The position numbers were made by a program, and so were the translations under genes. A stretch of 64,000 nucleotides of DNA from a virus (taxonomy: Duplodnaviria; Heunggongvirae; Uroviricota; Caudoviricetes): positions 1 to 64,000 of the IMG/VR virus record IMGVR_UViG_3300024343_000007. One strand, written 5' to 3'. The notes below the pieces were generated by a model. That model did not search any database and was not told where the DNA came from. It saw only the letters and a program-made list of their open reading frames with translations. Below, piece by piece: positions 1 through 14,459 of the stretch (position 1 is the stretch's first letter; each line of letters begins with the position of its first letter).

Positions 1-332
1 CTTTAGCCATAATGGTAAATTTGGTGAATCCTACTTCTGTAGCTCTTGCTAACATATTGAAACCCATAATGTAATTAGAGTCTTCAATAATAATGTTCTT
101 AATGTGTGGTGCCTTGTCAGAGATAGTCTTTAATAGACGTGTAATCTCGTTAGCATCATCCACTTCTTTGTAGTTTTTAGCCTCAGCGTTATACAACTTC
201 TCTGCTCCTTTAAAAGGTAATTCCTTTTTAGCAACATTGATGATGTAAGTTTCTTTTGGATCTAAATGTTTTACTGATGTTGACTTGCCAGTGCCTGTAG
301 CACCAACAATTCCAATTAATTTGCTTGCCATG
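1..332 (-). CDS. P-loop NTPase, N-terminal part only (gene continues beyond the window start); kinase-like N-terminal Walker A
   Basis: Reverse translation from ATG at 330-332 gives MASKLIGIVGATGTGKSTSVKHL... with Walker A GATGTGKST at residues 10-18 and a hydrophobic-ED stretch (IIIEDSNY). The open frame runs off the window edge. A P-loop this close to the N-terminus is typical of nucleotide/polynucleotide-kinase-like folds rather than AAA+. Confidence 0.6.
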
Positions 333-336
333 TTTT

Positions 337-552
337 TTACTGTTTTTGTTCTGATAAAGGTACTTCAATTTCTTCAGATTGCAAAATAATTTCTCTAGTT
401 TTTGTTGCATCTGGGTTGTTAACTATATCATTATAAATGGCCTCTGCAACCTCTTTATCTCTAGTCCATCTTATTGATGTACCATTGACTCTTACACCAT
501 ACCATGCTTGATCACTAAATGGCTCCATTTGTTCAACTAGTTCTACTTTCAT
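337..552 (-). CDS. hypothetical protein (71 aa)
   Basis: ORF packed between the NTPase and helicase genes with a 4-nt overlap to the helicase stop. No recognisable motif. Confidence 0.45.
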   Translation of the reverse strand: MKVELVEQMEPFSDQAWYGVRVNGTSIRWTRDKEVAEAIYNDIVNNPDATKTREIILQSEEIEVPLSEQKQ

Positions 553-1643
553 ATGTATTTAATTTTGTCTTTATCAAAGAATTCTAGTGCTTTTCTAAGC
601 CACTTTCTTTCCACGTCTTCAACAGAAGATATGATGTATATATAGGCTTTCTTTTCTGGATTGTTATACTCCATGGCCATACATCTATTAATCTTTTGTG
701 CTAGATTCTCACCATTACTATCAAAGTAATTAATGATAACCCTATTGAGTGGTTTATATGTAACACCTGTATTACCTATCTTTACAACAGCCAGGTGGTT
801 ACCAACACCAGATGCAAAGTCATCAAATACTTGTTTGTCTCCTGCTTTGCTATGATAGACAGGAATGCCTAAGTCATCTGCTACCTTTGTGACACCACAG
901 AATACTAGTACACGCTCATCTTTGTGCTTAACTAATAGTTCTTTTGTCTTATTAAGCTTAGCAAGACTGTTCTGAATGAGTCTCATTCTAGCTAGACGTA
1001 AAAACATGGTTGCTTTACCTTGCTTCTCTAGCTGATCTATAACCCATCCATATGCAGCAAACTGAGTCTTTTCAGTCTTCCACTTACCTTTGTAGTCATT
1101 CTGCTTTGTGTTATCTAATGGTACTCCTACCACTGTGATTTCATAGTCAGATATGACTCCCTCCTTAATTGCTTGTTCTATGGAATAGGTGGCTAAGACT
1201 GGTAGTCCAAGCTCTGTTCCTAATGTTTGTTCTGTATGTGATGATAAGGTCCCTGTTAGACCTAACACCTTTGTGCATTGTAGCTCCTTTACAGCCTCCA
1301 TTTGTGCTTCAGACAGTAAATGTACCTCATCTAGGATTACTATGTCATAAAAGGCAGCTGTGTGCTTTTTTAGAGACAAATGCGTGGTATAAGTCATATT
1401 GCCATTCTTATACTTTCTAGCTACAAAGTGCTCTTCCCATGCATTCTTAATCTTAAGATCAGGATATGCTATGAGAATGTTAATGTCTTTGTCTAGTTTT
1501 TCTAATATATTAATGGACACATTGATCTTACCAAACCTAGGACATAGGTTTAGGATACCAAACTTACCATTGTTCAGCCATACATCAGCAAACTCTACTT
1601 GTCTCTTATCTCGTAGCGTAAGGGTGGGCTTGCTTTTTGCCAT
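549..1643 (-). CDS. Superfamily-2 DEAH-box helicase (364 aa)
   Basis: Motif I-like LCPRFGK, motif II ILDEVH, motif III LTGT(L)S, motif VI-like QKINRCMAM. Size and motif order fit a compact SF2 helicase of a phage replication module. Confidence 0.7.
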   Translation of the reverse strand: MAKSKPTLTLRDKRQVEFADVWLNNGKFGILNLCPRFGKINVSINILEKLDKDINILIAYPDLKIKNAWEEHFVARKYKNGNMTYTTHLSLKKHTAAFYDIVILDEVHLLSEAQMEAVKELQCTKVLGLTGTLSSHTEQTLGTELGLPVLATYSIEQAIKEGVISDYEITVVGVPLDNTKQNDYKGKWKTEKTQFAAYGWVIDQLEKQGKATMFLRLARMRLIQNSLAKLNKTKELLVKHKDERVLVFCGVTKVADDLGIPVYHSKAGDKQVFDDFASGVGNHLAVVKIGNTGVTYKPLNRVIINYFDSNGENLAQKINRCMAMEYNNPEKKAYIYIISSVEDVERKWLRKALEFFDKDKIKYI

Positions 1644-1818
1644 AGCTTATTATTGTTGTTAATGACCAAAATAGATACTCTACATTTAGAGCTACATATG
1701 GATCATGTTTCTGTATGTTATTCATAACAGATACTGTTGGAAATAATACTACTTGCCACCAATGACTTTTTTCATTGGGTAATGTATTATATGTTTTAAA
1801 ATTTAACTTCATTATCAT
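1606..1818 (-). CDS. hypothetical small protein (70 aa)
   Basis: ORF whose start overlaps the upstream gene stop by 4 nt (ATGA). Its 3' end overlaps the helicase start by 38 nt, so the true extent is uncertain. Confidence 0.3.
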   Translation of the reverse strand: MIMKLNFKTYNTLPNEKSHWWQVVLFPTVSVMNNIQKHDPYVALNVEYLFWSLTTIISYGKKQAHPYATR

Positions 1819-2876
1819 TTATTTAAAAAGAATGTTTTACTAATAATATCATTATATATACTCTCATTCATATACTTAACCTTTGGTAGTTCTTTGAACA
1901 TACCAATCTGGCCAAGAAAACTTAACCCTATTCTCACATCATCTTCCCCATAACTATTCTTTATTAGTCTCAATGATCTGAAATACTTTGCACCAAACTC
2001 ATCTCTAAGTCTGTTCAGGTCATATCCTGAAGGGTCTGCTACTTTATATCGCATGGGATCAAACAATGCTAGGACAACATCAGCATCATTCTGTGTTTGT
2101 GAACTCTCAGCAAAGTCTTCTAGCTGTGGTTCTACATCACCATTCTTTAGTCTCATTGGACTAGAAATGTCCCTATTAAACTGACTAACAATTACAGGAC
2201 TATATCCATACATGTCACGAGCATATCTCAGCTCATCAGACATCTTGTCTATACACTGTTTCTTAGTAGAATAATCTTTTGTTGGTTTTAAAAGACCTAT
2301 GTGGTCAATAACAACAATAGTGATTTCATTCTCATTATTAGGAATGTACTTCTTATTGTATTGATCTACATCTTCTATTACACCATTAGCTAATGCATGA
2401 TCTTTAAGATGTTTAGATATACCCACTGGGTTCTCTGGTCCATCAATAATAGTGATTACATCTTTCATTTGTTCCATATAATCCTCATACATCAGAAACA
2501 AATCATGCTCATCAGGTGTCATCTTATCTGTCCAACCTAATAGCTTGGATACAGGAATGATTATACCTTGGTCAAGGAATATCTTTCTTGAGACCCATTT
2601 AGCATATTTGTATGTTCTGCTACGTTCCATAGATCTGTATATGATCTTTAACTTAAGACCTGGAGTCTTCTGACTGATAAACCAATCAAATGGATTTAAA
2701 ACATATGCGTCATCTAAGAAGCTTGTTTTACCTGATCCAGTGAGGCCACCTATCAGTGTGTACATGCCTTTTCTGATGCCAATATATCTGTTCAATCTGT
2801 CAAAGCCCATAGGTATACCATTGTTTCTACCATCTAGGCCTGCTTGAACTTCTCGTTTTAAATCTTCAAAACTCAT
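1815..2876 (-). CDS. DnaB-like replicative helicase, RecA-fold C-terminal domain (353 aa)
   Basis: Walker A GGLTGSGKTSF and Walker B VVIDHIGLL. DnaB/gp4-type C-terminal helicase domain layout. Start overlaps the upstream gene by 4 nt. Confidence 0.7.
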   Translation of the reverse strand: MSFEDLKREVQAGLDGRNNGIPMGFDRLNRYIGIRKGMYTLIGGLTGSGKTSFLDDAYVLNPFDWFISQKTPGLKLKIIYRSMERSRTYKYAKWVSRKIFLDQGIIIPVSKLLGWTDKMTPDEHDLFLMYEDYMEQMKDVITIIDGPENPVGISKHLKDHALANGVIEDVDQYNKKYIPNNENEITIVVIDHIGLLKPTKDYSTKKQCIDKMSDELRYARDMYGYSPVIVSQFNRDISSPMRLKNGDVEPQLEDFAESSQTQNDADVVLALFDPMRYKVADPSGYDLNRLRDEFGAKYFRSLRLIKNSYGEDDVRIGLSFLGQIGMFKELPKVKYMNESIYNDIISKTFFLNK

Positions 2877-3499
2877 ATGTCCATGCCTTTAATTGGTTCA
2901 GCAGATTCTATTACAGTCTTACCATCTCTTATCAACTCAATGAATGGTTCAAATGACCTCTGGTTGAGATAGGTGAGACTGTTCTGCATAAATGTAAGTC
3001 TATTGACTTTTGTCTTAATTGAATTCTCTTTCTTCTGCAGTATTTCGTATTCTAATGCTGCTATGAGCTCTGTAGGTTTGTACTCGCCTTCTCCAACAAT
3101 GCTGTCGAATTTGATTTTACACTCATCTTTCTTTACACGCATGCCACGTGTACCTGTAAATGATTGACTCTTATATGTGAAGGTGTCAGTACCTGGGTAC
3201 ATCATCCACCACTTATCAAAGTCAGAATCTGTTTTCTTCTTCTTAGCTATCTTAGGTTGCTCTATCTTCTCATTAAGAAAAGACAAAACTTCATTACCTA
3301 TGATAGTAATCTTATTTGACTCTGACAATAGACCTTTTCTGCGTACAGTTTGATGTAACATTTTCATCTTACTATCATCTGTACACATTTCATCTACATC
3401 ATTGCCTTCTTGAACAAGTGTTATGAAGCATAACATGTCTAAGCTGTAGCCAGCTTTAGTCAGCTCCTTAAAATGGGAGAACGTTAGCGTGAGGTTCAT
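2873..3499 (-). CDS. hypothetical protein (208 aa)
   Basis: Long ORF in the operon, 4-nt overlap with the helicase gene. No motif recognised. Confidence 0.6.
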   Translation of the reverse strand: MNLTLTFSHFKELTKAGYSLDMLCFITLVQEGNDVDEMCTDDSKMKMLHQTVRRKGLLSESNKITIIGNEVLSFLNEKIEQPKIAKKKKTDSDFDKWWMMYPGTDTFTYKSQSFTGTRGMRVKKDECKIKFDSIVGEGEYKPTELIAALEYEILQKKENSIKTKVNRLTFMQNSLTYLNQRSFEPFIELIRDGKTVIESAEPIKGMDI

Positions 3500-3668
3500 T
3501 ATGTTTCTCTAGGATTTTATCTGTGTCTATTACTTCAATACGAGCAGGTTGTTTCTGATTTAATTCTTTCTGAATTGCTTCGTTCCACTCCTGTCCTTCT
3601 TCATGCAAATATATGAAATCCTTGAGATATTCTCTCTCCCAATCTTCAATTATTTTTAGGTTCTTCAT
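3468..3668 (-). CDS. hypothetical small protein (66 aa)
   Basis: ORF filling the gap in the leftward operon. 32-nt overlap with the downstream gene. Confidence 0.3.
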   Translation of the reverse strand: MKNLKIIEDWEREYLKDFIYLHEEGQEWNEAIQKELNQKQPARIEVIDTDKILEKHNEPHANVLPF

Positions 3669-3906
3669 CTTTATATCCTTTATTATTCCAAAAATAAGAA
3701 CAACTTAATGTTGCAACACCAAGACCAACATGGTGATTGTCAAACATGAAATCTAATTTATATGGAGGGTCACTAAAAAATGATTGTCCTAGTTCTTCAG
3801 CCTTAGCTGTATATCTGTGGCAGTTCAGTCTTAGTAGACAACTACCACCTTTGCACATTGAAATATCTGGCATATTTTTAATTTTAATTGTTATTCTGCA
3901 GCCCAA
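3646..3906 (-). CDS. hypothetical Cys-containing small protein (86 aa)
   Basis: ORF filling an otherwise empty gap. Several Cys/His residues (CKGGSC...CHRY). Short overlaps with both neighbours. Confidence 0.3.
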   Translation of the reverse strand: MGCRITIKIKNMPDISMCKGGSCLLRLNCHRYTAKAEELGQSFFSDPPYKLDFMFDNHHVGLGVATLSCSYFWNNKGYKDEEPKNN

Positions 3907-4442
3907 CCAAAGAGTATGTATTTACCTGCTCTCTCTGTTGTAGACTTCTTATATGTTATCTTAGCTACTGTAGGATCAGATTTGATTAACACCTTACGCA
4001 TTACAATCCTCGTAGTTTTTTGATGCTTCTCTGTATATGCTCTAGCCATCTTAACAGCATCACCTTTGGTCATACATGAAGCTATCACCCCATCTTCAAA
4101 ATAGTTTTCCACTTCATATTTAAGAATCCATTGCTTTGTACCAGGTGTAACTACATGCTCCACTTGAGACTTAGTCTTGTTCTTATTAACAATTGGATCT
4201 AATATACATATGCCAGCACAGTCTCTTTTATGTAACTTATCTTGTTGCATCTTTACATACTCATCAAAGCTTTTCTTACTTCTTCTAAATTGATCTGTAA
4301 GGTCATCAATTGTATGTGTTGTACTAATTGTACCATTATATGAATCATTTCCTGATTCTACTTCTGCCTCTGCAACAGCATTAGTATATGCATCTGATAA
4401 TGTTTTACCATATGCTGTCATTTCAAACCAACTTGCTCCCAT
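3891..4442 (-). CDS. hypothetical protein (183 aa)
   Basis: Well-sized ORF in the operon. No motif recognised. Confidence 0.6.
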   Translation of the reverse strand: MGASWFEMTAYGKTLSDAYTNAVAEAEVESGNDSYNGTISTTHTIDDLTDQFRRSKKSFDEYVKMQQDKLHKRDCAGICILDPIVNKNKTKSQVEHVVTPGTKQWILKYEVENYFEDGVIASCMTKGDAVKMARAYTEKHQKTTRIVMRKVLIKSDPTVAKITYKKSTTERAGKYILFGWAAE

Positions 4443-4454
4443 AATTGTGTTTTT

Positions 4455-4856
4455 TTATTTTACTTCAATATGATTCCTACCATCATTCCAATATGTTATG
4501 TCACCATACCATACAAAGAGTTCTTCGTCAGGTTGGATGAGTCTTGTAGCAACAAACTCAAACGTGTTGCGTTCTATGTTGGATCTCCAAGCAGCGTTGG
4601 CTGTGTCTGAATGATTATAAAATGAACCAAACCCACCAGCTACCACTTGTTTCTCCCATTGTCTACCAGAATCTTGTGGCCAATTAAATCTGTAGTCTAT
4701 TACACAAGGAGATATTTCTCCATTTTGCATACCTATATCAAAAAAGGGACACTCTTCTATAATGTCCCCTTCAAATATTATCTTGTCTGCAAATACTCCC
4801 CAGCCATGTATACTGCTTGGAGCCATATAGACTTTTGTTGATGGATATATACGCAT
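4455..4856 (-). CDS. SET-domain protein, minimal viral-type (putative protein lysine methyltransferase, 133 aa)
   Basis: HGWGVFA (GxG SAM-binding motif), YNHSDTANA (NHSxxPN-like pseudoknot motif) and EELFVWYGDITYW (ELxxxYG...W post-SET-like tail). This is the same motif order and spacing as the roughly 120-aa Chlorella-virus vSET-type minimal SET domains. Confidence 0.7.
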   Translation of the reverse strand: MRIYPSTKVYMAPSSIHGWGVFADKIIFEGDIIEECPFFDIGMQNGEISPCVIDYRFNWPQDSGRQWEKQVVAGGFGSFYNHSDTANAAWRSNIERNTFEFVATRLIQPDEELFVWYGDITYWNDGRNHIEVK

Positions 4857-4857
4857 A

Positions 4858-5112
4858 TTAATCTTTTATACGTAGGCCAAACTCTAAATCAAACCATTGA
4901 AAGTTTGCTTCAGCTCTTGCTTTGTTTATTTTAAATACCTTTTTCATTAATGGTACAGCATATGCTTTGAACTCATTATGTTGTTCTTGAGTCATAGTCC
5001 ATTTGCTGTACCACTCTTTTGTCATATATGCTTCTTGCATAGACTTACCAACCATTTCTAGTTGATAACTAACAAGATGGTCGCCTATGTTTTCTCTATT
5101 TATCTTTGCCAT
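4858..5112 (-). CDS. hypothetical protein (84 aa)
   Basis: ORF directly abutting the SET gene (1-nt spacer) and overlapping the upstream stop. Confidence 0.5.
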   Translation of the reverse strand: MAKINRENIGDHLVSYQLEMVGKSMQEAYMTKEWYSKWTMTQEQHNEFKAYAVPLMKKVFKINKARAEANFQWFDLEFGLRIKD

Positions 5113-5300
5113 TAGAATGTGTCTATAAGTTTAACTATTTCATCGTAGTCATACGTATCTCCTTCTTGTTGTGCTTTCATTAATAGCTTTGCAACTACTT
5201 TACCACATTTCTTAGCTACATCTATACCTGTATATGGATCTTGTCCTACAATTGGTAGGAATTCCAATACTAATTCTGCTGCTTTATGTTTGTTGTCCAT
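5112..5300 (-). CDS. hypothetical small protein (62 aa)
   Basis: ORF with start/stop overlaps on both sides (ATGA-type coupling), between the polymerase and the 84-aa gene. Confidence 0.4.
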   Translation of the reverse strand: MDNKHKAAELVLEFLPIVGQDPYTGIDVAKKCGKVVAKLLMKAQQEGDTYDYDEIVKLIDTF

Positions 5301-7252
5301 TAGAATAATGTCATTTGATTAGGATTAATAATAATTTTACGCTTTCTACCTTCATACTGTATTTTGTGCATGATTCTCTCAGCACGCTCTATATAATATG
5401 CATGATTGATGTTATCTAGAGGATGATCTGGTAATAGATGATTACATACTTTCATCACCCATTCGCCTGCTTCAACTTGTGATACATCAACAGCTGTGCT
5501 ATCTGAATTCTCATTCTTAACCTTCAATAACTTCTCACCTGTATTACTTACATAATATCTGATAAGTTTATTGTAGACTGTTCTGTTTTCTTTCGAGTGT
5601 CCTTCGTAGTGAAAGTCTTTACTAGCTTTCTGTCTGAGACAATAGTCATAAATATTTGTGTGATTATGAATAGTGGTAGCCACAGGCACATCATTAACAA
5701 AAAACTGCTCCAGTGCAATAGGTACAATCCTAGCACTCTTATTTTTGTGCAGCTCAAAGTCAGTAAGGAAATCTCCTTTCTTTTTAATTTCTCCATTGGT
5801 TTTAATTGCTAAATAGTCATTAACTGTTGAGAATATAATCTTTTGATAATCAGTGCGTTCAAGCTCATATTTAGTAGCTTCCATCCACCAACTATTAATC
5901 TCATGCATCTTATCTATTAATGATTTATTAACCATAATAGTTACACCATCTGTATTTGCAGATATAACATGTATATCAGCTAATTCATATGCTTCGATGA
6001 GCATAAGAAGACTCAATTCACCTGTAATAGTTGTGAACATCGTTAGTTGTCTATCATAGATCCAAGACAACATATCACTAGACTTACCATACACAGAGTT
6101 AACTGCAAGCTTTAATGCACCAACAATACCTGCTATCTTCTTATCCTTCTTAGCTAATGGCTTTAGTTCAAGTCTTTTCTCAAACATAGCCCTATATCCT
6201 AAAAGAAACTCTTTACCCAAATGACCAGGATATCTGCCATTATTAATAATAATAGCTGGATAGTAAGAGCTAACATCCCAATCAACAATAATGTTGTCAT
6301 TATCAGCTTCAAATACCTTTGGTTTGTTTTCTGTATGTAAGCCACCTTTGGCAAACGTGTATATATTTTCATAAAACATTAATGATTCTTTGAACTCATC
6401 TTTCATTGTCAAACGCTCCTTACTAACCTTCTTTAAGAATGCTTGTAGCTCTGGTGTCTGGAATGATATGTAATCAGCAATACAATCTCTCACCTTAACT
6501 TCAGTTCTAAACAATCCTTTCTTTGGTAGATCAGAATACTGTATACCTTTCTCTTGGCAATAGTATTTCTTAATCATCTCATCACCAATCTTACTATCTG
6601 AATAGTTTAAGCATGGAATGCCAAACTCTTCGTATATGTCTTGTCTTAGTTCTATCTGATTATTATCCTTATATAGTGGATGTTCAGTGTTACCTGTTGT
6701 TACCTTGTAGAATTCATACGTAGCCATAACATCATTACGACAGTAGTCTATTGTTAGAGCTATCTCGTCTTGTGTCATGTTCTCTTTAGTATGATGGATA
6801 GGCATCTCTTCAATGTTCTCCAGATCCATCTCAAACTCTAACCTTTTTAGTGAGACCATTCTATTCTTGTTATCATAATGATTAATCTTGAATAGGTCTA
6901 ACTGTTTTAGTGATAACCATTCCTCTCTATATTCAGGGAATACATCATAATTAGCATCATGTATTGTGTCTGCAGCCTTCTGTGCTATCATAGCACATAT
7001 CTCTAGTCCACCCAACTCATGCCAATTCTCATAGTTCCTAATTATATGCTCAACAACCTGACTATCAAAGCGTAAGTTGTTGTAGCCCACCCAATAATGC
7101 TCATCATGTTGTTCAGTGAATCTAATGAATCCATCTAATTGATTGGTCCACCTACTCACCTGAAACTCGTATGTTACATCACTCTCTGGATTGTATATAA
7201 CAATAAGAAACAGTTCTTTCAGTGTTTCAATATCATAGATGAGTACGTTCAT
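5300..7252 (-). CDS. Family-B DNA polymerase with 3'-5' proofreading exonuclease (650 aa, compact, phi29/piPolB-like motif pattern)
   Basis: Exo I YDIET, Exo II GYNNLRFD, Exo III YCRNDV. Pol motif A DVSSYYPAII (DxxSLYPS), motif B KLAVNSVYGKS (KxxxNSxYG), motif C ISANTDGV (DTD variant). Short length and the NLxFD / YxxND exo motifs resemble compact phi29-type and piPolB-type enzymes. Confidence 0.85.
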   Translation of the reverse strand: MNVLIYDIETLKELFLIVIYNPESDVTYEFQVSRWTNQLDGFIRFTEQHDEHYWVGYNNLRFDSQVVEHIIRNYENWHELGGLEICAMIAQKAADTIHDANYDVFPEYREEWLSLKQLDLFKINHYDNKNRMVSLKRLEFEMDLENIEEMPIHHTKENMTQDEIALTIDYCRNDVMATYEFYKVTTGNTEHPLYKDNNQIELRQDIYEEFGIPCLNYSDSKIGDEMIKKYYCQEKGIQYSDLPKKGLFRTEVKVRDCIADYISFQTPELQAFLKKVSKERLTMKDEFKESLMFYENIYTFAKGGLHTENKPKVFEADNDNIIVDWDVSSYYPAIIINNGRYPGHLGKEFLLGYRAMFEKRLELKPLAKKDKKIAGIVGALKLAVNSVYGKSSDMLSWIYDRQLTMFTTITGELSLLMLIEAYELADIHVISANTDGVTIMVNKSLIDKMHEINSWWMEATKYELERTDYQKIIFSTVNDYLAIKTNGEIKKKGDFLTDFELHKNKSARIVPIALEQFFVNDVPVATTIHNHTNIYDYCLRQKASKDFHYEGHSKENRTVYNKLIRYYVSNTGEKLLKVKNENSDSTAVDVSQVEAGEWVMKVCNHLLPDHPLDNINHAYYIERAERIMHKIQYEGRKRKIIINPNQMTLF

Positions 7253-7375
7253 ATAGTTCTATTAATTGTTCAACTTTTAAATACACAGTGGGAAATTGTG
7301 CTGGTTTGTACCATTTATCATCTTTATACCTAACATAATTGTTTTCTGTTATCCATTCTAATAAACTTAACATAA

Positions 7376-7609
7376 TTAAAATGTTATTTGTGGTGTAACA
7401 AAACTAAATTTTATAGGCTCACCTAATTCATAAATTTTAATCTTATCCTTAGCATCTAAATATGTATCAGGATTTTCATTGAAATCATCAATTATGTCTT
7501 TTTTTGTACCTACTACCCATGCTTCTGTATTTTCATACATTACAACATATTGTTTTTGTTTAGCTTTTGATAGTTCTTTAACTAAGTGAGCTGGTGTTTT
7601 CTTTCTCAT
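7376..7609 (-). CDS. hypothetical protein (77 aa)
   Basis: Small ORF in the densely packed minus-strand early region. Confidence 0.45.
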   Translation of the reverse strand: MRKKTPAHLVKELSKAKQKQYVVMYENTEAWVVGTKKDIIDDFNENPDTYLDAKDKIKIYELGEPIKFSFVTPQITF

Positions 7610-7612
7610 AGG

Positions 7613-7846
7613 TTATTTGTTTTGGTTATAGGTTTGGTTGTAGTAGTTTTCCCCCTTGGTAATAACTTCATCACTACCTGTAAAAGTTATATCGCCAAAT
7701 ATCTTTTGATTGGCAGCATCTATTATCTGCTCTTTTTCTTTTTCAAGTAATGATTCAAATTTGTTTAATAATTGAATATGAAATGTTGTTTTAACAAAAT
7801 GTTCTTGATTATACCATTCAATCAATTCTTGCATTGCAGTTTTCAT
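7613..7846 (-). CDS. hypothetical protein (77 aa)
   Basis: Small ORF, 3-nt spacer to the downstream gene and 4-nt overlap with the upstream one. Confidence 0.45.
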   Translation of the reverse strand: MKTAMQELIEWYNQEHFVKTTFHIQLLNKFESLLEKEKEQIIDAANQKIFGDITFTGSDEVITKGENYYNQTYNQNK

Positions 7847-8058
7847 AATATTGGTTTGTTTTTATCTTTATGCATACCATACTTCTTCAACCTAAATTCT
7901 AATGCAGACTGTTTACCATTAAGTTTGTCTCTTGTTTTATCAGTAAGGTTTAACTTACTAGTTTCTATTTCAAAATCAAACTTATCATCATATGATAATG
8001 TAGCTCTTTGTTTTTTAATAGCTATCATTATGTCTATTTCTGATATATATGTTTCCAT
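7843..8058 (-). CDS. hypothetical protein (71 aa)
   Basis: Small ORF, 4-nt overlap with its neighbour. Confidence 0.4.
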   Translation of the reverse strand: METYISEIDIMIAIKKQRATLSYDDKFDFEIETSKLNLTDKTRDKLNGKQSALEFRLKKYGMHKDKNKPIL

Positions 8059-8210
8059 TATTTATATGTTTTAATGTATGCTTTGATGCACCACTTAATC
8101 ATGTCCCAGAGATAATACCTCTGTTTTGATTTAGGAAGATTGTGTAAGCTCTCATAATAACTAAAATATTCATTCATAATGTGTAGGTTAATTTATTTTT
8201 AATGCTGCAG

Positions 8211-8513
8211 CTATTTCTTTGTAGTTTTTCTAGTCTTTACAAATGGTGCATCACTCTTAACACCATTCATTTGCTTAGGATTAGGTTTCTTTTTAGAACT
8301 ATCTTTCTCTTTTTCATTAAGAATTGTAATCATTGCAGCACTCAATACCTTAAATAATTGTTTATCTTTCTCTAATGCACTTGCAAATGCAGCACCAATT
8401 GCTAAACCATTCTCTGTGTTATCATGATAAACTATATCTACAATGTTACCCTCTATACTCATAAAGAAATAACCACTTAAATCTTTCACCTTTGGAACTT
8501 TAATCTTTGCCAT
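8211..8513 (-). CDS. hypothetical protein (100 aa), Lys-rich C-terminus
   Basis: ORF in the early region. Basic C-terminal tail (KKKPNPKQ...TRKTTKK) suggests nucleic-acid binding (inference). Confidence 0.45.
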   Translation of the reverse strand: MAKIKVPKVKDLSGYFFMSIEGNIVDIVYHDNTENGLAIGAAFASALEKDKQLFKVLSAAMITILNEKEKDSSKKKPNPKQMNGVKSDAPFVKTRKTTKK

Positions 8514-8669
8514 GTTGTTTTGTATTTAAATACCATCAGTCTTTGTGACTGATGGTATCGTTAGGTTTAATTGAATCATCCTTGTCTTGTTTTGTATCAT
8601 CAGGTGGTGCGTTCATCCATTCTGCAATGATCCATATCCACACTAGTAATACAAAGGTAATAAAATATA

Positions 8670-8918
8670 TCATTTGTCAAAGTTTTTTACCCTGATGAGT
8701 AGCTGATATGTATCAGAGCTGATGTACATATATTTGCGTCCCTTAATATGTAAACGTTTAGATGGTGTAAAATGTGCTTTGGTAGCAAATATAACATCTA
8801 TTAGTTTAGAGCACGCTTTAAGTCCCCTAACATAAGGAGAATCTTGTTGGTTTGGTTCGTAAACCTGGATTGTATGTGTGCAATGTGGTTTTGCACTGTA
8901 GACTAGGCTGTAAGACAT
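8670..8918 (-). CDS. hypothetical protein (82 aa)
   Basis: ORF in the early region. No motif. Confidence 0.4.
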   Translation of the reverse strand: MSYSLVYSAKPHCTHTIQVYEPNQQDSPYVRGLKACSKLIDVIFATKAHFTPSKRLHIKGRKYMYISSDTYQLLIRVKNFDK

Positions 8919-8936
8919 GATGTGTTAGTTTATTAG

Positions 8937-9224
8937 TTAGAAATAGAATGTCATACCTTGATCAGAAATCTCTATCTTGGTTGGTCTACTACTAATAGTG
9001 TGTTTCTTACCTTCCACTACTGTTTTAGTACGTACAGTGTTGGTGATAACAGGCTCCACTTTTGTATGCCTACGCATAATTAATAGTTTAGCATACACCC
9101 CACCATATGTTCTGTTGAACTGTTTAGCTAGTCTTTTAGCTAATCTAGTTGTTGAAATAGGCTTTTTAGCCATTTCTTGCATTGTTGATAACTCTGCTTG
9201 AGAGTACATTTTCATGTTTTTCAT
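8937..9224 (-). CDS. hypothetical basic protein (95 aa)
   Basis: ORF. Arg/Lys-rich (RLAKRLAKQFNRTYGG), possibly DNA-binding. Confidence 0.45.
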   Translation of the reverse strand: MKNMKMYSQAELSTMQEMAKKPISTTRLAKRLAKQFNRTYGGVYAKLLIMRRHTKVEPVITNTVRTKTVVEGKKHTISSRPTKIEISDQGMTFYF

Positions 9225-9228
9225 GTGC

Positions 9229-9561
9229 TTATTTTTTGTTTTTGTTTTTAAAATGTCTACTAGCTTGTTGTTGTCTAATCACCTGCTTTGGTATATCATT
9301 AACCCAATCAGGTATACTATCTAACATTTCTGCTATCTTTGTTGAAACAGGACTCATTGGTTTAAGTGGTAATGGTACTTTGTTAGAACTAAATCTACCT
9401 GTATCCACTCCATCTTTATATCTCTTATCTGTGGCTCTCTGGCCTGGCTTAAGTATAGTGCTGTATATTATGCCACTCTTTATTTTTCTTCTCATAATAA
9501 TGGGTTTAAGAAAAGCCCCACATTTCTGCAGGGCTTTCTCGTTTACTAACCACACACACAT
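9229..9561 (-). CDS. hypothetical protein (110 aa)
   Basis: ORF, 4-nt spacer from the previous gene. Confidence 0.4.
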   Translation of the reverse strand: MCVWLVNEKALQKCGAFLKPIIMRRKIKSGIIYSTILKPGQRATDKRYKDGVDTGRFSSNKVPLPLKPMSPVSTKIAEMLDSIPDWVNDIPKQVIRQQQASRHFKNKNKK

Positions 9562-9566
9562 CTAAC

Positions 9567-9758
9567 CTAATTTCTTTGTAATGAGTTATAGACATGTCTA
9601 TACCACTCATTTATCTCTAATTGCTCTTCAGGTGTAGCTGTAGACTTAAGTTTTATCTCAAGCTTTAATGGCTGCTCCTCAGGCTTTTTATCTTCAAATA
9701 AAATTTCATATAGCTTCTTCATCTCCTTGGTTTTAAAGGGTTTATTAATCTGGGTCAT
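9567..9758 (-). CDS. hypothetical small protein (about 63 aa; the longest frame extends to 9845)
   Basis: The longest ORF (9567..9845) overlaps the 210-aa acidic gene by 100 nt. The internal Met (MTQINKPF...) at about 9758 is the more plausible start. Confidence 0.3.
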   Translation of the reverse strand: MTQINKPFKTKEMKKLYEILFEDKKPEEQPLKLEIKLKSTATPEEQLEINEWYRHVYNSLQRN

Positions 9759-10377
9759 AATCTGTCTTGTCTTTAGGGTGATCGTGTGGCCATTCAGGAT
9801 TGTCATAATCAGTGAGGTCATCCATATCATCAAAGTTTTCTTCATCTTCTAATCCATCATTTGATGTGACATCATAATCATCATCCCAATCGTCTTCATC
9901 TACAAAGCCAGCTTGTTTAATCATCACCTTGTCAGTGTCTTCATATAACAGTGGTTCTCTAGTCTCATCATCTACCTCAAGAGCTATGAGACCATCATTA
10001 TCACCATTCTCACCATATAACCAATCATTGATAATCTTGGGTGACAAGTCTTCTAATGTAGTGTGATCTGTCCATGTACCATCTTCATTCTCTTCAGCAA
10101 GGTTATCTTCCCACCAACCTATGTATTCAGGACGTACAAGTATATCCTCTACATCATCAGGGTTAGTCATTGGTTGAATAATGAATGGTTCAACTGGTGC
10201 ACCACTAGTAGACATGTATTCGTACATGTCATATGGTATCTCTTTTAGTTCATATATGGTAAAATAGTTATATACTTTACCATAGACCACATCACTGTGA
10301 TCTCTTTTAAACCACATACCTACTTCCAATTGCTTGGGCATATATGATTTAAATATAAGTTTTGCTAATATAAACAT
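9745..10377 (-). CDS. hypothetical highly acidic protein (210 aa)
   Basis: Asp/Glu-rich throughout, especially the C-terminal 60 aa (DEDDWDDDYD...DDMDDLTDYD). Early-module position. Confidence 0.6.
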   Translation of the reverse strand: MFILAKLIFKSYMPKQLEVGMWFKRDHSDVVYGKVYNYFTIYELKEIPYDMYEYMSTSGAPVEPFIIQPMTNPDDVEDILVRPEYIGWWEDNLAEENEDGTWTDHTTLEDLSPKIINDWLYGENGDNDGLIALEVDDETREPLLYEDTDKVMIKQAGFVDEDDWDDDYDVTSNDGLEDEENFDDMDDLTDYDNPEWPHDHPKDKTDYDPD

Positions 10378-10456
10378 AATTGTTTGTTTTTATAATGATT
10401 AAAATAGAGCCCTGCTAGGGGAAGCAGAGCCCTAAATCTAACACACATATTACCAA

Positions 10457-10651
10457 CTAGCCAATCTTTTTTGTGTTTTGTTTGTGATTGTAAAAATACA
10501 ATGCAGATGTTAAATAACCTGTAATAGATACAAGTATTAACATACCCCATCCAAGATCACTCTCTTCAAAGGTATATAATATCCATAGGATAATAAATGT
10601 CGTAATTAAAGCCATCATAATGGCTATAAATAAATTAAATGCTTTTTTCAT
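10457..10651 (-). CDS. small predicted membrane protein (64 aa)
   Basis: Two hydrophobic helices (LFIAIMMALITTFIILWILY ; GMLILVSITGYLTSALYF). Confidence 0.4.
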   Translation of the reverse strand: MKKAFNLFIAIMMALITTFIILWILYTFEESDLGWGMLILVSITGYLTSALYFYNHKQNTKKIG

Positions 10652-10678
10652 GTTGTGTATTGTGTAATTAATAAATAT

Positions 10679-10885
10679 TTATTCTACCATATCAGCAAAG
10701 GCTAATTGCCATTCTTCATCTGTAATGCCTGTCATTAAGAACTCACGTTCTGCAGGTGGTAGATGAGGAACAATACGTTGAATAAGATCTGTCTTGTTTT
10801 CAATCTTCCATAGTTGTTCTTCTGTAACATCTATGTCCATAGTGTGCTCAACTTTTGTTAATGAGCTTATTTTAGTAATTTTCAT
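10679..10885 (-). CDS. hypothetical protein (68 aa)
   Basis: ORF, 2-nt spacer to the downstream membrane-protein gene. Confidence 0.4.
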   Translation of the reverse strand: MKITKISSLTKVEHTMDIDVTEEQLWKIENKTDLIQRIVPHLPPAEREFLMTGITDEEWQLAFADMVE

Positions 10886-10887
10886 AA

Positions 10888-11115
10888 CTAATTGATTTTA
10901 AATAATTTAATACTTTCAAAGTCCTTTTCATCACCTGACATGTATAATATAGACATCATCATAAAATAGAATGCATAAGCTATAATGTAAGGTGTGGAAG
11001 TAATAGCATCTTGGTATACAAATGCAAATCCTGATACTAATAAGAAGAATAGGACAATTACATATGGTATTGTCCATAGTGCTAATAAATTAGCAATGTG
11101 TTTAATAAAGTTCAT
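10888..11115 (-). CDS. small predicted membrane protein (75 aa)
   Basis: Hydrophobic segments (LALWTIPYVIVLFFLLVSGFAFVY ; IIAYAFYFMMMSILYM). Confidence 0.45.
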   Translation of the reverse strand: MNFIKHIANLLALWTIPYVIVLFFLLVSGFAFVYQDAITSTPYIIAYAFYFMMMSILYMSGDEKDFESIKLFKIN

Positions 11116-11202
11116 AAATGTGTGTTAAATGATTGATTAATAATGTGTTATATAAATATATATCGCCTTTGGTACGCTAAAGGCTAATGACAGAGATATA
11201 TA

Positions 11203-11709
11203 TTATTCAGAATGAGATGCATCACCATCCCAATAGTCTGTTTCTGTTAATGGTTCTTCAACTGTGTTTATTTTTCTAAATAGATTATGTATGTTATTAC
11301 CACCATTATCAAGCGTCTTGACATGTATATATTTATACTCATCAGTGTTTAATTGAATAACAGCAGCCATAGGATCTTCCCAATTATCAGAGCCATATCT
11401 TAATGCTAAACAGGCTAGATCACCATAATCAGTGATTTCTCCTTCTGCATTAGAAGGAAATACCATTGTCTCTTGCATAAGATCACTTGTAGAAGCAAGA
11501 ACATACTCTGGATGATAATCATCAAGATTAGGAAAATGAGCTAATGCTAATTGTTCTGCAGCCTCATTTTCAGCAGCCATTTGTTTGTAATCATCATCAG
11601 ACCAATCCATTTGATCAGCATCGTTCTCAGGTTCTCCTGAATTAACATAATCGAATACATCTTGTAATGTAATAAAGCCATTGTCTATTAAGACTTGAAT
11701 CTTGTTCAT
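11203..11709 (-). CDS. hypothetical acidic protein (168 aa)
   Basis: Asp/Glu-rich (ENDADQMDWSDDDYKQMAAENEAAE...). First gene after a 225-bp spacer that contains a terminator. Confidence 0.6.
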   Translation of the reverse strand: MNKIQVLIDNGFITLQDVFDYVNSGEPENDADQMDWSDDDYKQMAAENEAAEQLALAHFPNLDDYHPEYVLASTSDLMQETMVFPSNAEGEITDYGDLACLALRYGSDNWEDPMAAVIQLNTDEYKYIHVKTLDNGGNNIHNLFRKINTVEEPLTETDYWDGDASHSE

Positions 11710-11880
11710 GTGTTTTTTATTTAATATGTGTGTGAATAAAATCCCTCTGTACTCAGATGTAATACATACACTTCGTCAGCTAATTTGATGAGGATTGGTT
11801 TTTATACCCTAACTCAAATCTGAAGCACTGTTCTGCCATGTATTACATCTGTCTATCCTTGGGAAATAGAAATGGTACAT

Positions 11881-11909
11881 TGAAACAAAAGAGCCCATTA
11901 CAGGCTCTT
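11881..11909 (-). terminator. Rho-independent terminator on the minus strand
   Basis: Stem AAGAGCC (11889-11895) / GGCTCTT (11903-11909) with a 7-nt loop. On the minus strand it is followed by TTTGTTTC (complement of 11881-11888). Lies just downstream of the small ORF 11936-12092. Confidence 0.45.
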
Positions 11910-11935
11910 ATTATCCATTATAAGAAGATTCTAAC

Positions 11936-12092
11936 ATAGCTATAGAATGTTCTCTTTGTATCTGTCCAGCTAATGCTTCAAGCTTCTTTGCCATTTGTCT
12001 AACAAACTCTATATGCTCTATGTTAGAATAGACAGCTTCCTTACACTCACAAGAGAGTGCATATACTAATTCATCTAATGACTTTTCCATGT
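11936..12092 (-). CDS. hypothetical small protein (about 52 aa)
   Basis: Reverse-strand ORF MEKSLDELVYALSCECKEAVYSNIEHIEFVRQMAKKLEALAGQIQREHSIAMLESSYNG. Below the 60-aa cutoff of the ORF track. Bounded by two terminator-like hairpins. Confidence 0.3.
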
Positions 12093-12281
12093 TAATTGTT
12101 ATTTAATGCTATATATATTGTATTGTATAGCACAGATTATCAAATGTTGTTTAGACCACTAAAAGGGTCAATAGAACCTACACCATCTCGTTCATTCACA
12201 CAGAATGTATTGAATTTCAGTGAGTTATATAATTATTCCCACCCAAACGTGTCATTACACCCACCCTTATATACGAATAAG

Positions 12282-12316
12282 GGAAAACAAGAGCTTGGAT
12301 GATGTTCCAAGCCCTT
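12282..12316 (-). terminator. Rho-independent terminator on the minus strand, following the 128-aa first early gene
   Basis: Imperfect 11-bp stem CAAGAGCTTGG (12287-12297) / CCAAGCCCTTG (12306-12316), 8-nt loop, followed on the minus strand by TTTTC (complement of 12282-12286). The 128-aa gene stop is at 12330. Confidence 0.45.
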
Positions 12317-12329
12317 GTTAAGTGTGAGA

Positions 12330-12716
12330 TTAAGCCCCTGCCAACTCTTCAAGCTCTGCTTCGCTTGTGATGCCCACAGCAGTGTACTCTTTCTTGATAG
12401 CCTGTGCAACTTCTGCATCTAATGTAGCGTCTATCACGTGAGCGTCAATGTACTCTTGCTTGGTCTTGAACACTGCAGTTGCAGTATCACGAGTCATTGT
12501 TAACTTGCCATCAGCGTAAGGTATTGCATTACCATCTTTGTCAAGTCTTGCACCATAAGTCTTCTTTGCAACTATAGCGAAGAATTGCTTAAAGTCTGCA
12601 TCAACCTTAATGCCCAATGCATCCATCTGACGCTTGTAGATGTGGATTCTTTCGCCTTTAGTGTTGTAACCATTGAAGTTACCATTTGGTGAGAAGTTGC
12701 CTGAATTGATTACCAT
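12330..12716 (-). CDS. hypothetical protein (128 aa), promoter-proximal first gene of the leftward module
   Basis: ORF directly adjacent to the divergent control region and followed by its own terminator. Noticeably GC-richer codon usage in its 3' half than surrounding genes. No motif recognised. Confidence 0.65.
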   Translation of the reverse strand: MVINSGNFSPNGNFNGYNTKGERIHIYKRQMDALGIKVDADFKQFFAIVAKKTYGARLDKDGNAIPYADGKLTMTRDTATAVFKTKQEYIDAHVIDATLDAEVAQAIKKEYTAVGITSEAELEELAGA

Positions 12717-13381
12717 AACGAATTTTACAGTTTTGTAGTGGTGTCTCCACTATAGGTTTGTTAATTGTGAGCCATAGGGGGGCTATGTCAACCCCCTGTT
12801 TTGTGCACGGGGGTGCAATCTGGGTTACCCTCCTCCCCTATACATACAAAGGGGGTAGGGGGGCTATATAAAATTTTGGGCCTAAGCACAGGATAGTTCC
12901 ACAAGGAACGTTGCATGAATTTTTCCAAATTCTTCATGCACATTGTGTCACAATTTTTCAAATATTTGTGACATATTTATATAAATAGGTAACAAGGACT
13001 TCTGGGTTTGGCTGTGTTTTACTTCCTGATTTGGCAAGTTATAACAAGTCTATATTCTGCCAAAAGTCAAGCTATAGCTTTACCCATCTTACGTTTTGTC
13101 AAGCTATAGCTTTACATAATGTGTCTTATAAGGGATATGCTCAGCTTAACAATGTTGCTTTTATGACACATTATGATATGTCTTTACATATAATGATGGA
13201 ATCATCTTACATATTATATGCTTTATGATATAATATCCTGTTGTATCAAAACTAGAAAATCCTGCAAGTTTTGATAATAGGAAAAAATAAATTTGGCTGG
13301 TAAATTTATTTAGCAGTATCTTTGGGGGGGATTTAGGGGGGGCCCTGCTAATTCACCTCTCATTAATAAAAGCTTAGATAT
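12717..13381. promoter_or_regulatory. Divergent non-coding control region between the leftward and rightward modules (candidate early promoters, operators, possible origin)
   Basis: 665 bp without a convincing ORF (only a 65-aa frame). Contains palindromes GCATGAA-n13-TTCATGC (12913-12939) and TGTCACAA-n12-TTGTGACA (12946-12973), two copies of the near-palindrome GTCAAGCTATAGCTTTAC (13066-13083, 13098-13115), the repeated element TAGGGGGGCTAT (12774-12786, 12856-12867), and G7-ATTTA-G7 (13324-13342). Genes diverge from both ends. Confidence 0.5.
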
Positions 13382-13627
13382 ATGGTAGTAGTAAATGTGT
13401 TGTTGGTTATAGTGACGTTACTTAGTATGGCAGTGATTGTATGGGGGTTAGTCTGCTTTGAGGAGTATGAGATAGGTATAGAGTTTCTACCTAAAGACTA
13501 CAATAGTTTTGAACTAGGAGTGTCTAATAGAAACTACAAGTTGGAAGATGAAGGGTTAGAACAGGAGCTTAGGATAGGACTGTTGTTATTCAGTGTTATT
13601 TTCCTGTTTAGGAGATTTGATGCATAA
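13382..13627 (+). CDS. small predicted membrane protein (81 aa)
   Basis: N-terminal hydrophobic helix VVVNVLLVIVTLLSMAVIVWGLVCF and a C-terminal hydrophobic segment. First ORF of the rightward module. Confidence 0.4.
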   Translation: MVVVNVLLVIVTLLSMAVIVWGLVCFEEYEIGIEFLPKDYNSFELGVSNRNYKLEDEGLEQELRIGLLLFSVIFLFRRFDA

Positions 13628-13690
13628 TATAGCATTAACTTTTGCAATAACTAAAATAGTTATTTGTAGATAGGTAAGATATACATACCT

Positions 13691-14065
13691 TTGTATCAAC
13701 TAATTATGGAAACCAAACCTAAATCTCCTATTGTACAACGACTGAAAAGATCAGTGGAGGACAGTTACGTCCTGGCTGAGAAGTATTATAGGATCTTGTC
13801 ATCTGTCAACGACCTTAAGTTGACAAACAGGGAGATACAGCTTATTGCGTTTGCTGCCATGAAGGGTAATATATCCTATGCTAACATACGTAAGGAGTTT
13901 TGTGAGAAGTACGACAGTACATCTCCTGCAATCAATAACATTATTAGTAAGCTGAAGAAGATGGGTGTGTTTGTAAAGGATGGGACAAAGGTGAAGGTCA
14001 ATCCTCTCATCTTGCTCAACTTCGACAAGGATATTATATTGCAAATAAGTCTAATACATGGATAA
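13691..14065 (+). CDS. hypothetical protein (124 aa), possible winged-helix DNA-binding protein
   Basis: ORF preceded by TACCTTTG (a Bacteroidota-type -7 box TAnnTTTG) about 20 nt upstream of the ATG. Sequence LTNREIQLIAFAAMKGNISYANIRKEF is reminiscent of a wHTH recognition region (weak inference). Confidence 0.5.
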   Translation: MYQLIMETKPKSPIVQRLKRSVEDSYVLAEKYYRILSSVNDLKLTNREIQLIAFAAMKGNISYANIRKEFCEKYDSTSPAINNIISKLKKMGVFVKDGTKVKVNPLILLNFDKDIILQISLIHG

Positions 14066-14459
14066 GCCTATAAGCATGTCTGTTAAAGACTTCCTAGTTA
14101 GGACGCTTGCAGTTAAGATGATGATGAATGAAAAGATGATTGAGGCTGTGATAAACCATCAGTTTCAGTCTGCCAATGAGGCAATGGATCTTAACAATAG
14201 TCTAGAGATATCTGGCTTTGGTAAGTTCTATTTCAATGAGAAGAAAGCTATAAAACGACTTGGACAATTGAATGCTAAGAAGCAGGCAATGGAAAGGATA
14301 ATAATAGATGAAACTACATCTGAACAAAAGAAACGTTCATCTAAGGTGACACTAGAAAAAACAGAAGCTCTGATCAATTTGCTAACAACAAAAACTATAT
14401 ATGAAGATCAACTTCTCTCAGATATACGAGGGGTGGAAGAACAACCTCTTTCCAGCTGA
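14058..14459 (+). CDS. HU/IHF-like DNA-binding protein homolog (133 aa)
   Basis: N-terminal helix followed by LEISGFGKFYFNEKKA, matching the conserved HU/IHF beta-arm entry motif (GFGxF). Overall length and layout are HU-like; the C-terminal tail is divergent. Confidence 0.55.
   Translation: MDKPISMSVKDFLVRTLAVKMMMNEKMIEAVINHQFQSANEAMDLNNSLEISGFGKFYFNEKKAIKRLGQLNAKKQAMERIIIDETTSEQKKRSSKVTLEKTEALINLLTTKTIYEDQLLSDIRGVEEQPLSS

Follow-up and report, generated by a model that had tools for sequence, protein, structure and literature searches.

Small SET-domain proteins are known from viruses, eukaryotes and prokaryotes. The virus-encoded example is vSET, the A612L product of Paramecium bursaria chlorella virus 1 (PBCV-1; PDB 1n3j/3kma), a single domain of ~120–130 amino acids (aa) that lacks pre-SET and post-SET zinc clusters and whose target is lysine 27 of histone H3 (H3K27). 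The same minimal architecture recurs in two eukaryotic cellular proteins, Set7 of S. pombe (5h6z), a histone methyltransferase according to its PDB entry, and PFL0690c of P. falciparum (4rz0); their substrates are histones or unassigned, and neither is encoded by a mobile accessory gene. Go1-SET of Methanosarcina and cpnSET of Chlamydia are small SET proteins of histone-less organisms, encoded by chromosomal cell genes, and they act on DNA-packaging proteins, the chromatin proteins MC1-alpha and Hc1, respectively (PMC3980110). Few other prokaryotic SET substrates are known, and most characterised bacterial SET proteins are effectors employed against eukaryotic hosts (PMC3980110, PMC10117894). 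Here we report on a SET-domain gene, for short SET, in a 64,000-nucleotide (nt) stretch of tailed-phage DNA (positions 1 to 64,000 of IMG/VR record IMGVR_UViG_3300024343_000007; hereafter the window). Its product is a predicted vSET-type minimal SET enzyme, and in the lineage of the window the gene is a dispensable cassette.

Two SET proteins of phages served as points of comparison. ORF62 of Stenotrophomonas phage Ps15 is listed as a SET-domain protein without assigned function (PMC9025141), and UniProt entry A0A6J5L8Y2 bears the name 'SET domain containing protein [uncultured Caudovirales phage]'; both belong to other, more distant SET subfamilies, and we found no evolutionary or presence/absence study of either. 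Nor did the literature yield a functional study on any phage SET protein. The SET-domain call itself is already in public annotation: IMG names the exact window protein 'SET domain-containing protein' and has it on 28 contigs, in a 90%-identity cluster of 224 members, and UniProt/BFVD list several uncultured-Caudovirales SET entries. A preliminary description of the locus, made from the sequence of the window, had thus overstated its novelty. What is new is a phage-specific clade, centred on myoviruses and under purifying selection, that appears in the window as a precisely delimited accessory cassette with natural SET-less controls.

A minimal SET domain with a predicted complete active site

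The SET open reading frame (ORF) occupies positions 4455–4856 on the minus strand and encodes 133 aa, with the stop codon lying within these coordinates; plus-strand translation of the same interval runs into stops throughout. The preliminary description had placed the gene at exactly these coordinates and left its strand unstated. The three strings that it quoted as SET signatures all occur in the product and in the order given, GWGVFA at residues 18–23, YNHSDTANA at 80–88 and EELFVWYGDITYW at 111–123, and the translated protein contains MRIYPSTKVYMAPSSIHGWGVFADK, FGSFYNHSDTANAAW and QPDEELFVWYGDITYWNDGRNHIEVK in succession. The Pfam SET model (PF00856), against which alignment had been proposed as a check, is matched over the whole domain with 52.2 bits, above the gathering cutoff of 22.4 (E 9.3e-14; residues 18–118 on model positions 1–105 of 105). 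Given this score, the 99 homologue clusters described below and a ratio of non-synonymous to synonymous substitution rates (dN/dS) of 0.04–0.22 (Nei–Gojobori, nine within-family pairs), both the ORF and its domain match are far beyond chance, and the clade is under purifying selection. The PHROGs collection held no informative family for SET, the only matches being weak ones to phrog_28741, whose function is unannotated. The start at M1 has support from two sides: residues 8–14 are conserved in the family alignment and form the first beta-strand of the structural model, and the indel that separates the window from SET-less strains begins 1 nt before the ATG.

By sequence, family profile and predicted fold alike, the best solved match is vSET, in keeping with the compact vSET-like architecture claimed previously. 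A single-sequence search of solved structures ranked vSET best, followed by PFL0690c and Set7. The profile of 44 SET members that was used for residue conservation found the same three proteins (vSET 5e-18, Set7 6e-18, PFL0690c 3e-17), the next family, MLL1, reaching only 7e-7. The AlphaFold2 model, computed from the family alignment as a monomer, has a mean predicted local distance difference test (pLDDT) of 86.9 and a predicted template modelling score (pTM) of 0.80 and is weak only in the last ~13 residues; in vSET, dimerisation is essential. Compared with the PDB by Foldseek, the model matches vSET first (E 1e-8; template modelling score, TM, 0.85 normalised to vSET), then PFL0690c and Set7 (E 1e-7 to 1e-8 for these minimal proteins) and then the SET domains of MLL, EZH2, SETD8 and G9a; there were 338 PDB matches at E<=1e-3, and all 50 matches listed are SET enzymes. 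In BFVD the best match is A0A6J5L8Y2, with a TM of 0.85–0.88 and 32% identity. The predicted fold is therefore SET-like, where a different fold had been named as the outcome that would overturn the assignment. Window SET is a single domain, its 133 aa falling within the ~115–170 aa of the minimal SET proteins, and it lies nearer to these than to the canonical histone SETs; it has two cysteines (family median 1), too few for a Cys-rich pre-SET or post-SET zinc module.

Every catalytic and SAM-motif position (SAM, S-adenosylmethionine) is kept on alignment, including the tyrosine and histidine whose absence would likewise have spoken against a SET protein. In the 44-member alignment H17, G18, G20, V21, F22, F57, P60, Y80, N81, H82, E112, Y117, G118, Y122 and R127 are invariant; conservation of Y55 and W123 is 90% or higher. 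A HMMER alignment to vSET equates G18/G20 with G15/G17, Y55 with Y50, F57 with F52 and N81-H82 with N69-H70, and in the C-terminal part Y117 with Y105 and Y122-W123 with Y109-W110, so that the GxG, DY-x-F, NHS, E-x4-YGD and YW motifs of the two proteins align residue for residue. With Set7 the window protein further shares a tryptophan after NHSxxxNxx and an aromatic-W C-flank. These likenesses and the modelled structure indicate that the ORF is a vSET-type minimal SET enzyme with an intact fold and a complete predicted active site, and from the conserved residues together with the low dN/dS we infer methyltransferase activity.

The differences from vSET are nonetheless considerable. Identity is only ~25–30%; in the phage clade the SET-I insert is longer (RFNWPQ-x5-W-E-x-Q) and an additional NDGR tail is conserved; and the charge is opposite, the isoelectric point (pI) of window SET being 4.7 and that of vSET residues 5–110 ~8. 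All the phage enzymes are acidic, with a median pI of 4.8 and a net charge of about -8. The carrier, moreover, is a tailed phage whose host has no histone H3, which makes the H3K27 target inapplicable. Window SET would thus resemble vSET in its chemistry and structure and is probably not a functional orthologue of it.

A phage-specific clade

A word-indexed search recovered 99 homologue clusters of 123–146 aa at 49–90% identity, and a pattern scan of IMG/VR found relatives (53–100% identity) encoded on 291 viral contigs. Among 185,579 prokaryotic species genomes, each species represented by one genome, the best match reached 42%, and the other cellular matches, mainly from alphaproteobacterial and Bacteroidota metagenome-assembled genomes (MAGs), are only 28–38% identical to the phage clade, a range that separates the clade from Go1-SET, cpnSET and their kind. 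When 1.84 billion representatives were searched exhaustively with HMMER, the clusters recovered numbered 43 at E<=1e-30 and 2,482 at E<=1e-10; most are single-domain proteins 115–140 aa long. On these sequence comparisons window SET belongs to a clade of minimal SET proteins that is specific to phages.

The statement that SET domains are rare in tailed phages holds for the phage records in GenBank and fails for uncultured aquatic phages, as the 291 IMG/VR contigs make plain. Three SET queries (window SET, a bacterial relative and vSET) matched only one 735-kb uncultured megaphage among the GenBank phage records; it is deposited in two versions (LR756501.1 and LR756503.1, unannotated), and the match lies at 692189–692545 on the minus strand with 36–44% identity to the queries.

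The 42% cellular match raised a bacterial host as the source of the gene, and this origin was rejected: of the ten ORFs flanking the 'Fluviicola' match nine have no Pfam assignment and the tenth encodes the FkbM methyltransferase that also neighbours SET in jumbo phages. The contig (L091; JAJTEO010000009.1, from a 'Fluviicola sp.' MAG) carries SET at 5971–6387 and has a 284-aa protein in common with jumbo-phage loci, and is probably viral DNA binned into the MAG. Fusions also occur among close relatives, to PhyH/2-oxoglutarate (2OG)-Fe(II) oxygenases, to Methyltransf_24 and to a GT9 glycosyltransferase plus FkbM, alongside tandem double SETs (P0116, P0121, P0126, P0260, P0117, P0122, P0146 and P0175); some of these may be gene-calling artefacts.

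An accessory cassette of a single ORF

Seventy-nine relatives of the window lineage, fetched by means of the window DNA polymerase and 73–96% identical to it in that protein, all lack SET, including strains whose polymerase is 96% identical, and keep the flanking replication-module genes. The nature of the difference is clearest in L134, one of the strains with a 96%-identical polymerase. Here the TAA of g84, the small gene upstream of SET in the window, runs straight into AAAACACAATT-ATG, the leader and start of g183, the gene that lies downstream of SET (Table 1). Aligned to L134, the window has T-ATG(SET)...TAA-A inserted exactly between the g84 stop and AAAACACAATT-ATG, a clean indel. In the window lineage SET is a dispensable, accessory cassette consisting of a single ORF. 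A sub-lineage with polymerases 85–89% identical to that of the window (L005 and L014–L017) carries a 91%-identical SET in the same slot.

The cassette sits in the minus-strand block at 228–12,961 that holds the polymerase, the DnaB-like helicase and the superfamily 2 (SF2) helicase, and the genes around it are tightly packed. The replication-operon context of the preliminary description was accordingly sound, and its placement of SET next to the DNA polymerase was not, two small ORFs lying between the genes. The SET ATG is 1 nt from the g84 stop codon, which makes translational coupling of the two genes likely, and a scan of the cassette flanks found no promoter-like or terminator-like signal above shuffled expectation around the cassette. 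Lacking such signals and with its start codon this close to g84, SET is presumably expressed along with the replication genes, by read-through and coupling. The GC content of SET is 38%, against 33–35% in its flanks and 34.8% for the window.

Table 1. Features of the window and of the SET protein discussed in the text
Feature	Position	Strand	Remarks
SET cassette	4453–4857	minus	~404–405 nt; an A-run at the downstream junction blurs the ends by 1–2 bases
g84	4858–5112	minus	small upstream ORF, no assigned function; also in SET-less relatives, outside the cassette
g183	3891–4442	minus	downstream ORF, no assigned function; directly after g84 in SET-less strains, outside the cassette
DNA polymerase (phrog_1252)	5300–7252	minus	heads the tightly packed run that includes SET; marker for fetching relatives
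DnaB-like helicase	1815–2876	minus	minus-strand block
SF2 helicase	549–1643	minus	minus-strand block
HU-like ORF	14058–14459	plus	Pfam Bac_DNA_binding, 28.9 bits
Tail-fibre protein, 728 aa	28963–31149	plus
Virion structural protein, 1,696 aa	37224–42314		phrog_37948
ORF of 4,306 aa	50861–63781	plus	ends the virion block
SET motif I	H17-G18-W-G20-V-F-A	SET ORF, minus	SAM-binding GxG
SET-I insert	D54-Y55-R-F57-N-W-P60-Q	SET ORF, minus
SET motif III	Y80-N81-H82-S83	SET ORF, minus
SET motif IV	E112-x4-Y117-G118-D	SET ORF, minus	includes the catalytic tyrosine Y117
SET C-flank	Y122-W123-N-D-G-R127	SET ORF, minus

The interval between polymerase and DnaB (about 2876–5300 in the window, minus strand, and its equivalent in L134–L212) is a hot spot at which small ORFs are gained, lost or replaced across the 79 relatives: g62 is intermittent, and g183, g86 and g66 are either lost or only 40–60% identical, against 73–96% for the polymerase and DnaB. 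In L014–L017 the same region holds a second small cassette, situated between SET and g183, with a Cys-rich ORF of ~61 aa (MAYSTCCGAYSRMPEIDICPECRDHCDWEDEEDDEP...) that may encode a zinc ribbon and an acidic tail; in L017 it lies at about 6930–7115, and the matching junction in the window is at about 4443–4455.

Other carriers and probable horizontal transfer

Neighbouring genes within 5 kb of SET were clustered for 91 viral loci, which represent 29 SET sequence groups. In 19 of the 29 groups SET occupies one fixed myovirus position, at the boundary with the tail-sheath gene and in the order SET–SNF2 helicase–superoxide dismutase (SOD)–gp13–PolB, where it opens a rightward operon and overlaps the start of the SNF2-family helicase by 4 nt. 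These large myoviruses encode a 1,064-aa T4-type sheath, T4 gp13, a ~930-aa PolB and an Fe-SOD-domain protein. In a related subgroup SET lies inside glycan-biosynthesis islands and overlaps an FkbM methyltransferase gene, and in a third set, on contigs of up to 274 kb, it is found among WavE-like, sulfotransferase, GT2, MoxR-ATPase and GTP-cyclohydrolase genes. The main home of the clade is in large T4-like freshwater myoviruses. A giant-virus origin had come into consideration through a 219-kb contig with glycosyltransferases and a 927-aa PolB, and was rejected because sister contigs encode a tail sheath along with T4 gp13 and have an L5 gp82-like gene.

No neighbouring partner is conserved across lineages in the clustering of these 5-kb surroundings, and when all window ORFs were compared by BLAST with the flanks of the other carriers (~20 kb sampled, of genomes of up to 274 kb) SET was the sole gene in common. 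Within the sampled regions, then, SET travels alone between unrelated phages. In a rough neighbour-joining tree window SET nests within the myovirus-borne clade, and six IMG samples contain both phage types, the window type and the myovirus. Judged by this nesting and by a GC content above that of its flanks, SET appears to have reached the window phage horizontally, as a bare cassette the size of the ORF.

A protein of the myovirus carriers (L002, L007, L022 and others) deserves mention in its own right. It has 512 aa, contains the N-terminal and C-terminal domains of Fe/Mn SOD, and is encoded ~2–4 kb downstream of SET between the SNF2 helicase and the gp13-like neck protein; it is conserved in 31 loci and unusually long for a SOD.

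Candidate substrates and the role of SET

We favour an explanation in which SET is a functional vSET-like enzyme, acquired horizontally as an accessory cassette, that probably acts on a host protein, and taken as a whole we consider it on balance probable. SET would transfer methyl groups from SAM to a protein side chain, and the acceptor would almost certainly be the epsilon-amino group of lysine. A member of a clade at home mainly in large T4-like freshwater myoviruses, it would have been gained by a distant crAss-like phage with a probable Bacteroidota host, between two small genes downstream of the polymerase, where it would be expressed together with the replication genes in the absence of a detectable promoter or terminator of its own. 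Its target would be a conserved, probably basic host protein, be it nucleoid-associated, ribosomal or otherwise involved in translation, and methylation of this protein would confer a conditional advantage in host takeover or in the evasion of defence. The SET-I insert and C-flank regions line the substrate groove in vSET-type enzymes. It is here that the family-specific residues cluster (SET-I insert D54-Y-R-F-N-W-P-Q, W90 and C-flank Y-W-N-D-G-R127), and they are conserved across carriers with unrelated virions. As SET is optional for the phage, is the lone gene shared between the window and the sampled flanks of other carriers and keeps these groove motifs irrespective of the virion, a conserved host substrate is favoured; the acidity of the family weakly favours basic ones. 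A host-takeover function, as put forward in the preliminary description, is a reasonable inference, and so, by analogy with Go1-SET and cpnSET, is methylation of a nucleoid protein.

Methylation of a protein of the phage itself is the most serious competitor, although we regard it as unlikely. Its substrates could be lysines on the virion or capsid surface or the HU/IHF-like protein of the window phage, and its benefit could lie in particle stability, in the masking of lysines from proteases or host modification, or in the tuning of DNA packaging. The boundary with the tail-sheath and structural block at which SET resides in most myovirus carriers fits such a role, as do the jumbo phages in which SET sits among glycan-modification genes and overlaps them in translation, and one relative that is a GT9+FkbM+SET fusion; glycan-modification islands often decorate virions. 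The window phage also has an HU/IHF-like gene with 15 lysines; an HU-like chromatin protein had pointed the preliminary description towards methylation of a host or phage nucleoid protein. That gene passes the Bac_DNA_binding model, and to this extent the description was correct, but only the N-terminal half of the HU/IHF profile is matched (residues 10–64 on positions 3–57 of 90); the DNA-binding beta-arm of the C-terminal half is replaced by an unrelated Lys/Glu-rich region. A sequence search of the PDB with the HU-like ORF gave no match, and the gene belongs to the virion module, where it immediately precedes the terminase. That SET is dispensable and mobile as a lone gene argues against a dedicated partnership with any lineage-specific phage protein, and with the HU-like ORF being HU/IHF-like over half its length the proposed pairing is unsupported; we therefore disfavour this protein as the substrate. 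More broadly, 79 relatives, some with 96%-identical polymerases, do without SET (their virion and HU-like genes being presumed the same from relatedness), the gene moves with no other common gene in the sampled regions, and its groove motifs stay the same while the virions around it differ.

An anti-defence enzyme, which would inactivate a host immunity protein or mask a protein from a defence sensor, seems to us improbable to a greater degree. Strain-level patchiness, a hot-spot location and single-gene transfer are typical of phage counter-defence genes, and SET has all three: it is present or absent among near-identical strains, its slot falls in the small-ORF turnover hot spot between polymerase and DnaB, and it is a horizontally acquired single-gene cassette. 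We know of no precedent, however, for lysine methylation as an anti-defence mechanism. The position of the gene is stable over 19 diverged myovirus groups, more like that of a housekeeping takeover function, and none of its neighbours looked related to defence, PADLOC not having been searched. Very improbable indeed is a catalytically dead SET-fold protein that merely binds, or an enzyme with a non-lysine acceptor. SETD3 is a SET enzyme that methylates histidine, and the family motifs R56-F-N-W-P-Q, W90 and N-D-G-R127 are unlike those of histone SETs, so that the acceptor chemistry cannot be read from them; the C-terminal 13 residues are modelled at low confidence, and the assignment as an enzyme derives from sequence. 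Yet pseudoenzymes usually lose their SAM-binding or catalytic residues, and here the G-x-G, the N-H, Tyr117 and the channel residues Tyr55 and Tyr122 are invariant or nearly so under strong purifying selection.

Several considerations weigh against the favoured explanation. The activity, SAM binding and substrate of the clade members are deduced from sequence, and the neighbour-joining tree behind the direction of transfer is rough and without support values. Genomic context gives no consistent hint, since SET lies in a replication block here, heads the SNF2-helicase operon of most myoviruses and elsewhere belongs to islands of glycan or auxiliary genes. That close relatives are fused to a 2OG oxygenase, or to an FkbM or class-I methyltransferase with GT9, could mean modification of a phage or surface component, a shared phage-encoded substrate may lie beyond the ~20-kb sampled flanks of genomes that reach 274 kb, and the assignment of the host to the Bacteroidota is indirect.

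The locus bears on the role of SET proteins in histone-less organisms, for this enzyme must act inside a bacterium. Strains with 96%-identical polymerases that differ at the locus by exactly the SET ORF are natural near-isogenic controls, and with such pairs of SET-bearing and SET-less phages the substrate question is therefore directly testable. Should the target belong to the host, phages would have lysine methylation in their takeover repertoire beside ADP-ribosylation, phosphorylation and acetylation; should SET be inactive or confined to phage proteins, it would be one more annotated accessory gene. Beyond the window, the clade could be the first phage system of protein-lysine methylation, mobile among unrelated freshwater phages (crAss-like podophages and jumbo myoviruses) and directed at one conserved bacterial target, such as a nucleoid-associated or translation protein, in takeover or counter-defence, a proposal to which we give somewhat less than an even chance. 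The ADP-ribosylation carried out by T4 and the protein phosphorylation carried out by T7 are analogous host modifications; lysine methylation has, to our knowledge, not yet been described for phages.

The carrier phage and its host

The window has no close relative at the DNA level among 50,697 GenBank phage records, and the 5 kb around SET are also unmatched there. Its large terminase (TerL) is nearest to those of Leptolyngbya phage Lbo-JY46 (39%), the Cellulophaga phages phi4:1 and phi17:2 (31%) and gut crAss-like phages (~27%), and judged by this likeness the carrier, an uncultured phage from fresh water, would be a distant crAss-like phage. PHROG matches for portal, TerL and major capsid protein are present, and related contigs of 105–118 kb suggest the size of the genome. 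The large terminase, portal and major head protein are encoded in the plus-strand block, as are collagen-like tail fibres, a virion protein of 1,696 aa and an ORF of 4,306 aa.

As to the host, a Shine–Dalgarno-like motif precedes one of 33 window genes, and the Bacteroidota promoter pattern TTTG-N17-21-TAnnTTTG occurs eight times in the window where 2.6 are expected, a number that none of 100 shuffles reached; three of these sites fall within the strand switch at 12732–13693, where the replication and virion modules diverge. The scarcity of Shine–Dalgarno motifs and the enrichment of this pattern make a Bacteroidota host likely, if only by indirect means.

Some large genes of the virion block may be recorded here. 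Collagen-like repeats mark the 728-aa tail-fibre protein, for which 27 tail-fibre PHROGs give matches, and its low-complexity repeats produce spurious cross-matches to ORFs of the jumbo-phage loci. The 4,306-aa ORF has no PHROG match at E<=1e-5, and the same is true of the 1,033-aa and 902-aa ORFs before it; crAss-like phages have giant proteins that are part of the virion or are ejected, and it may be a counterpart of these.

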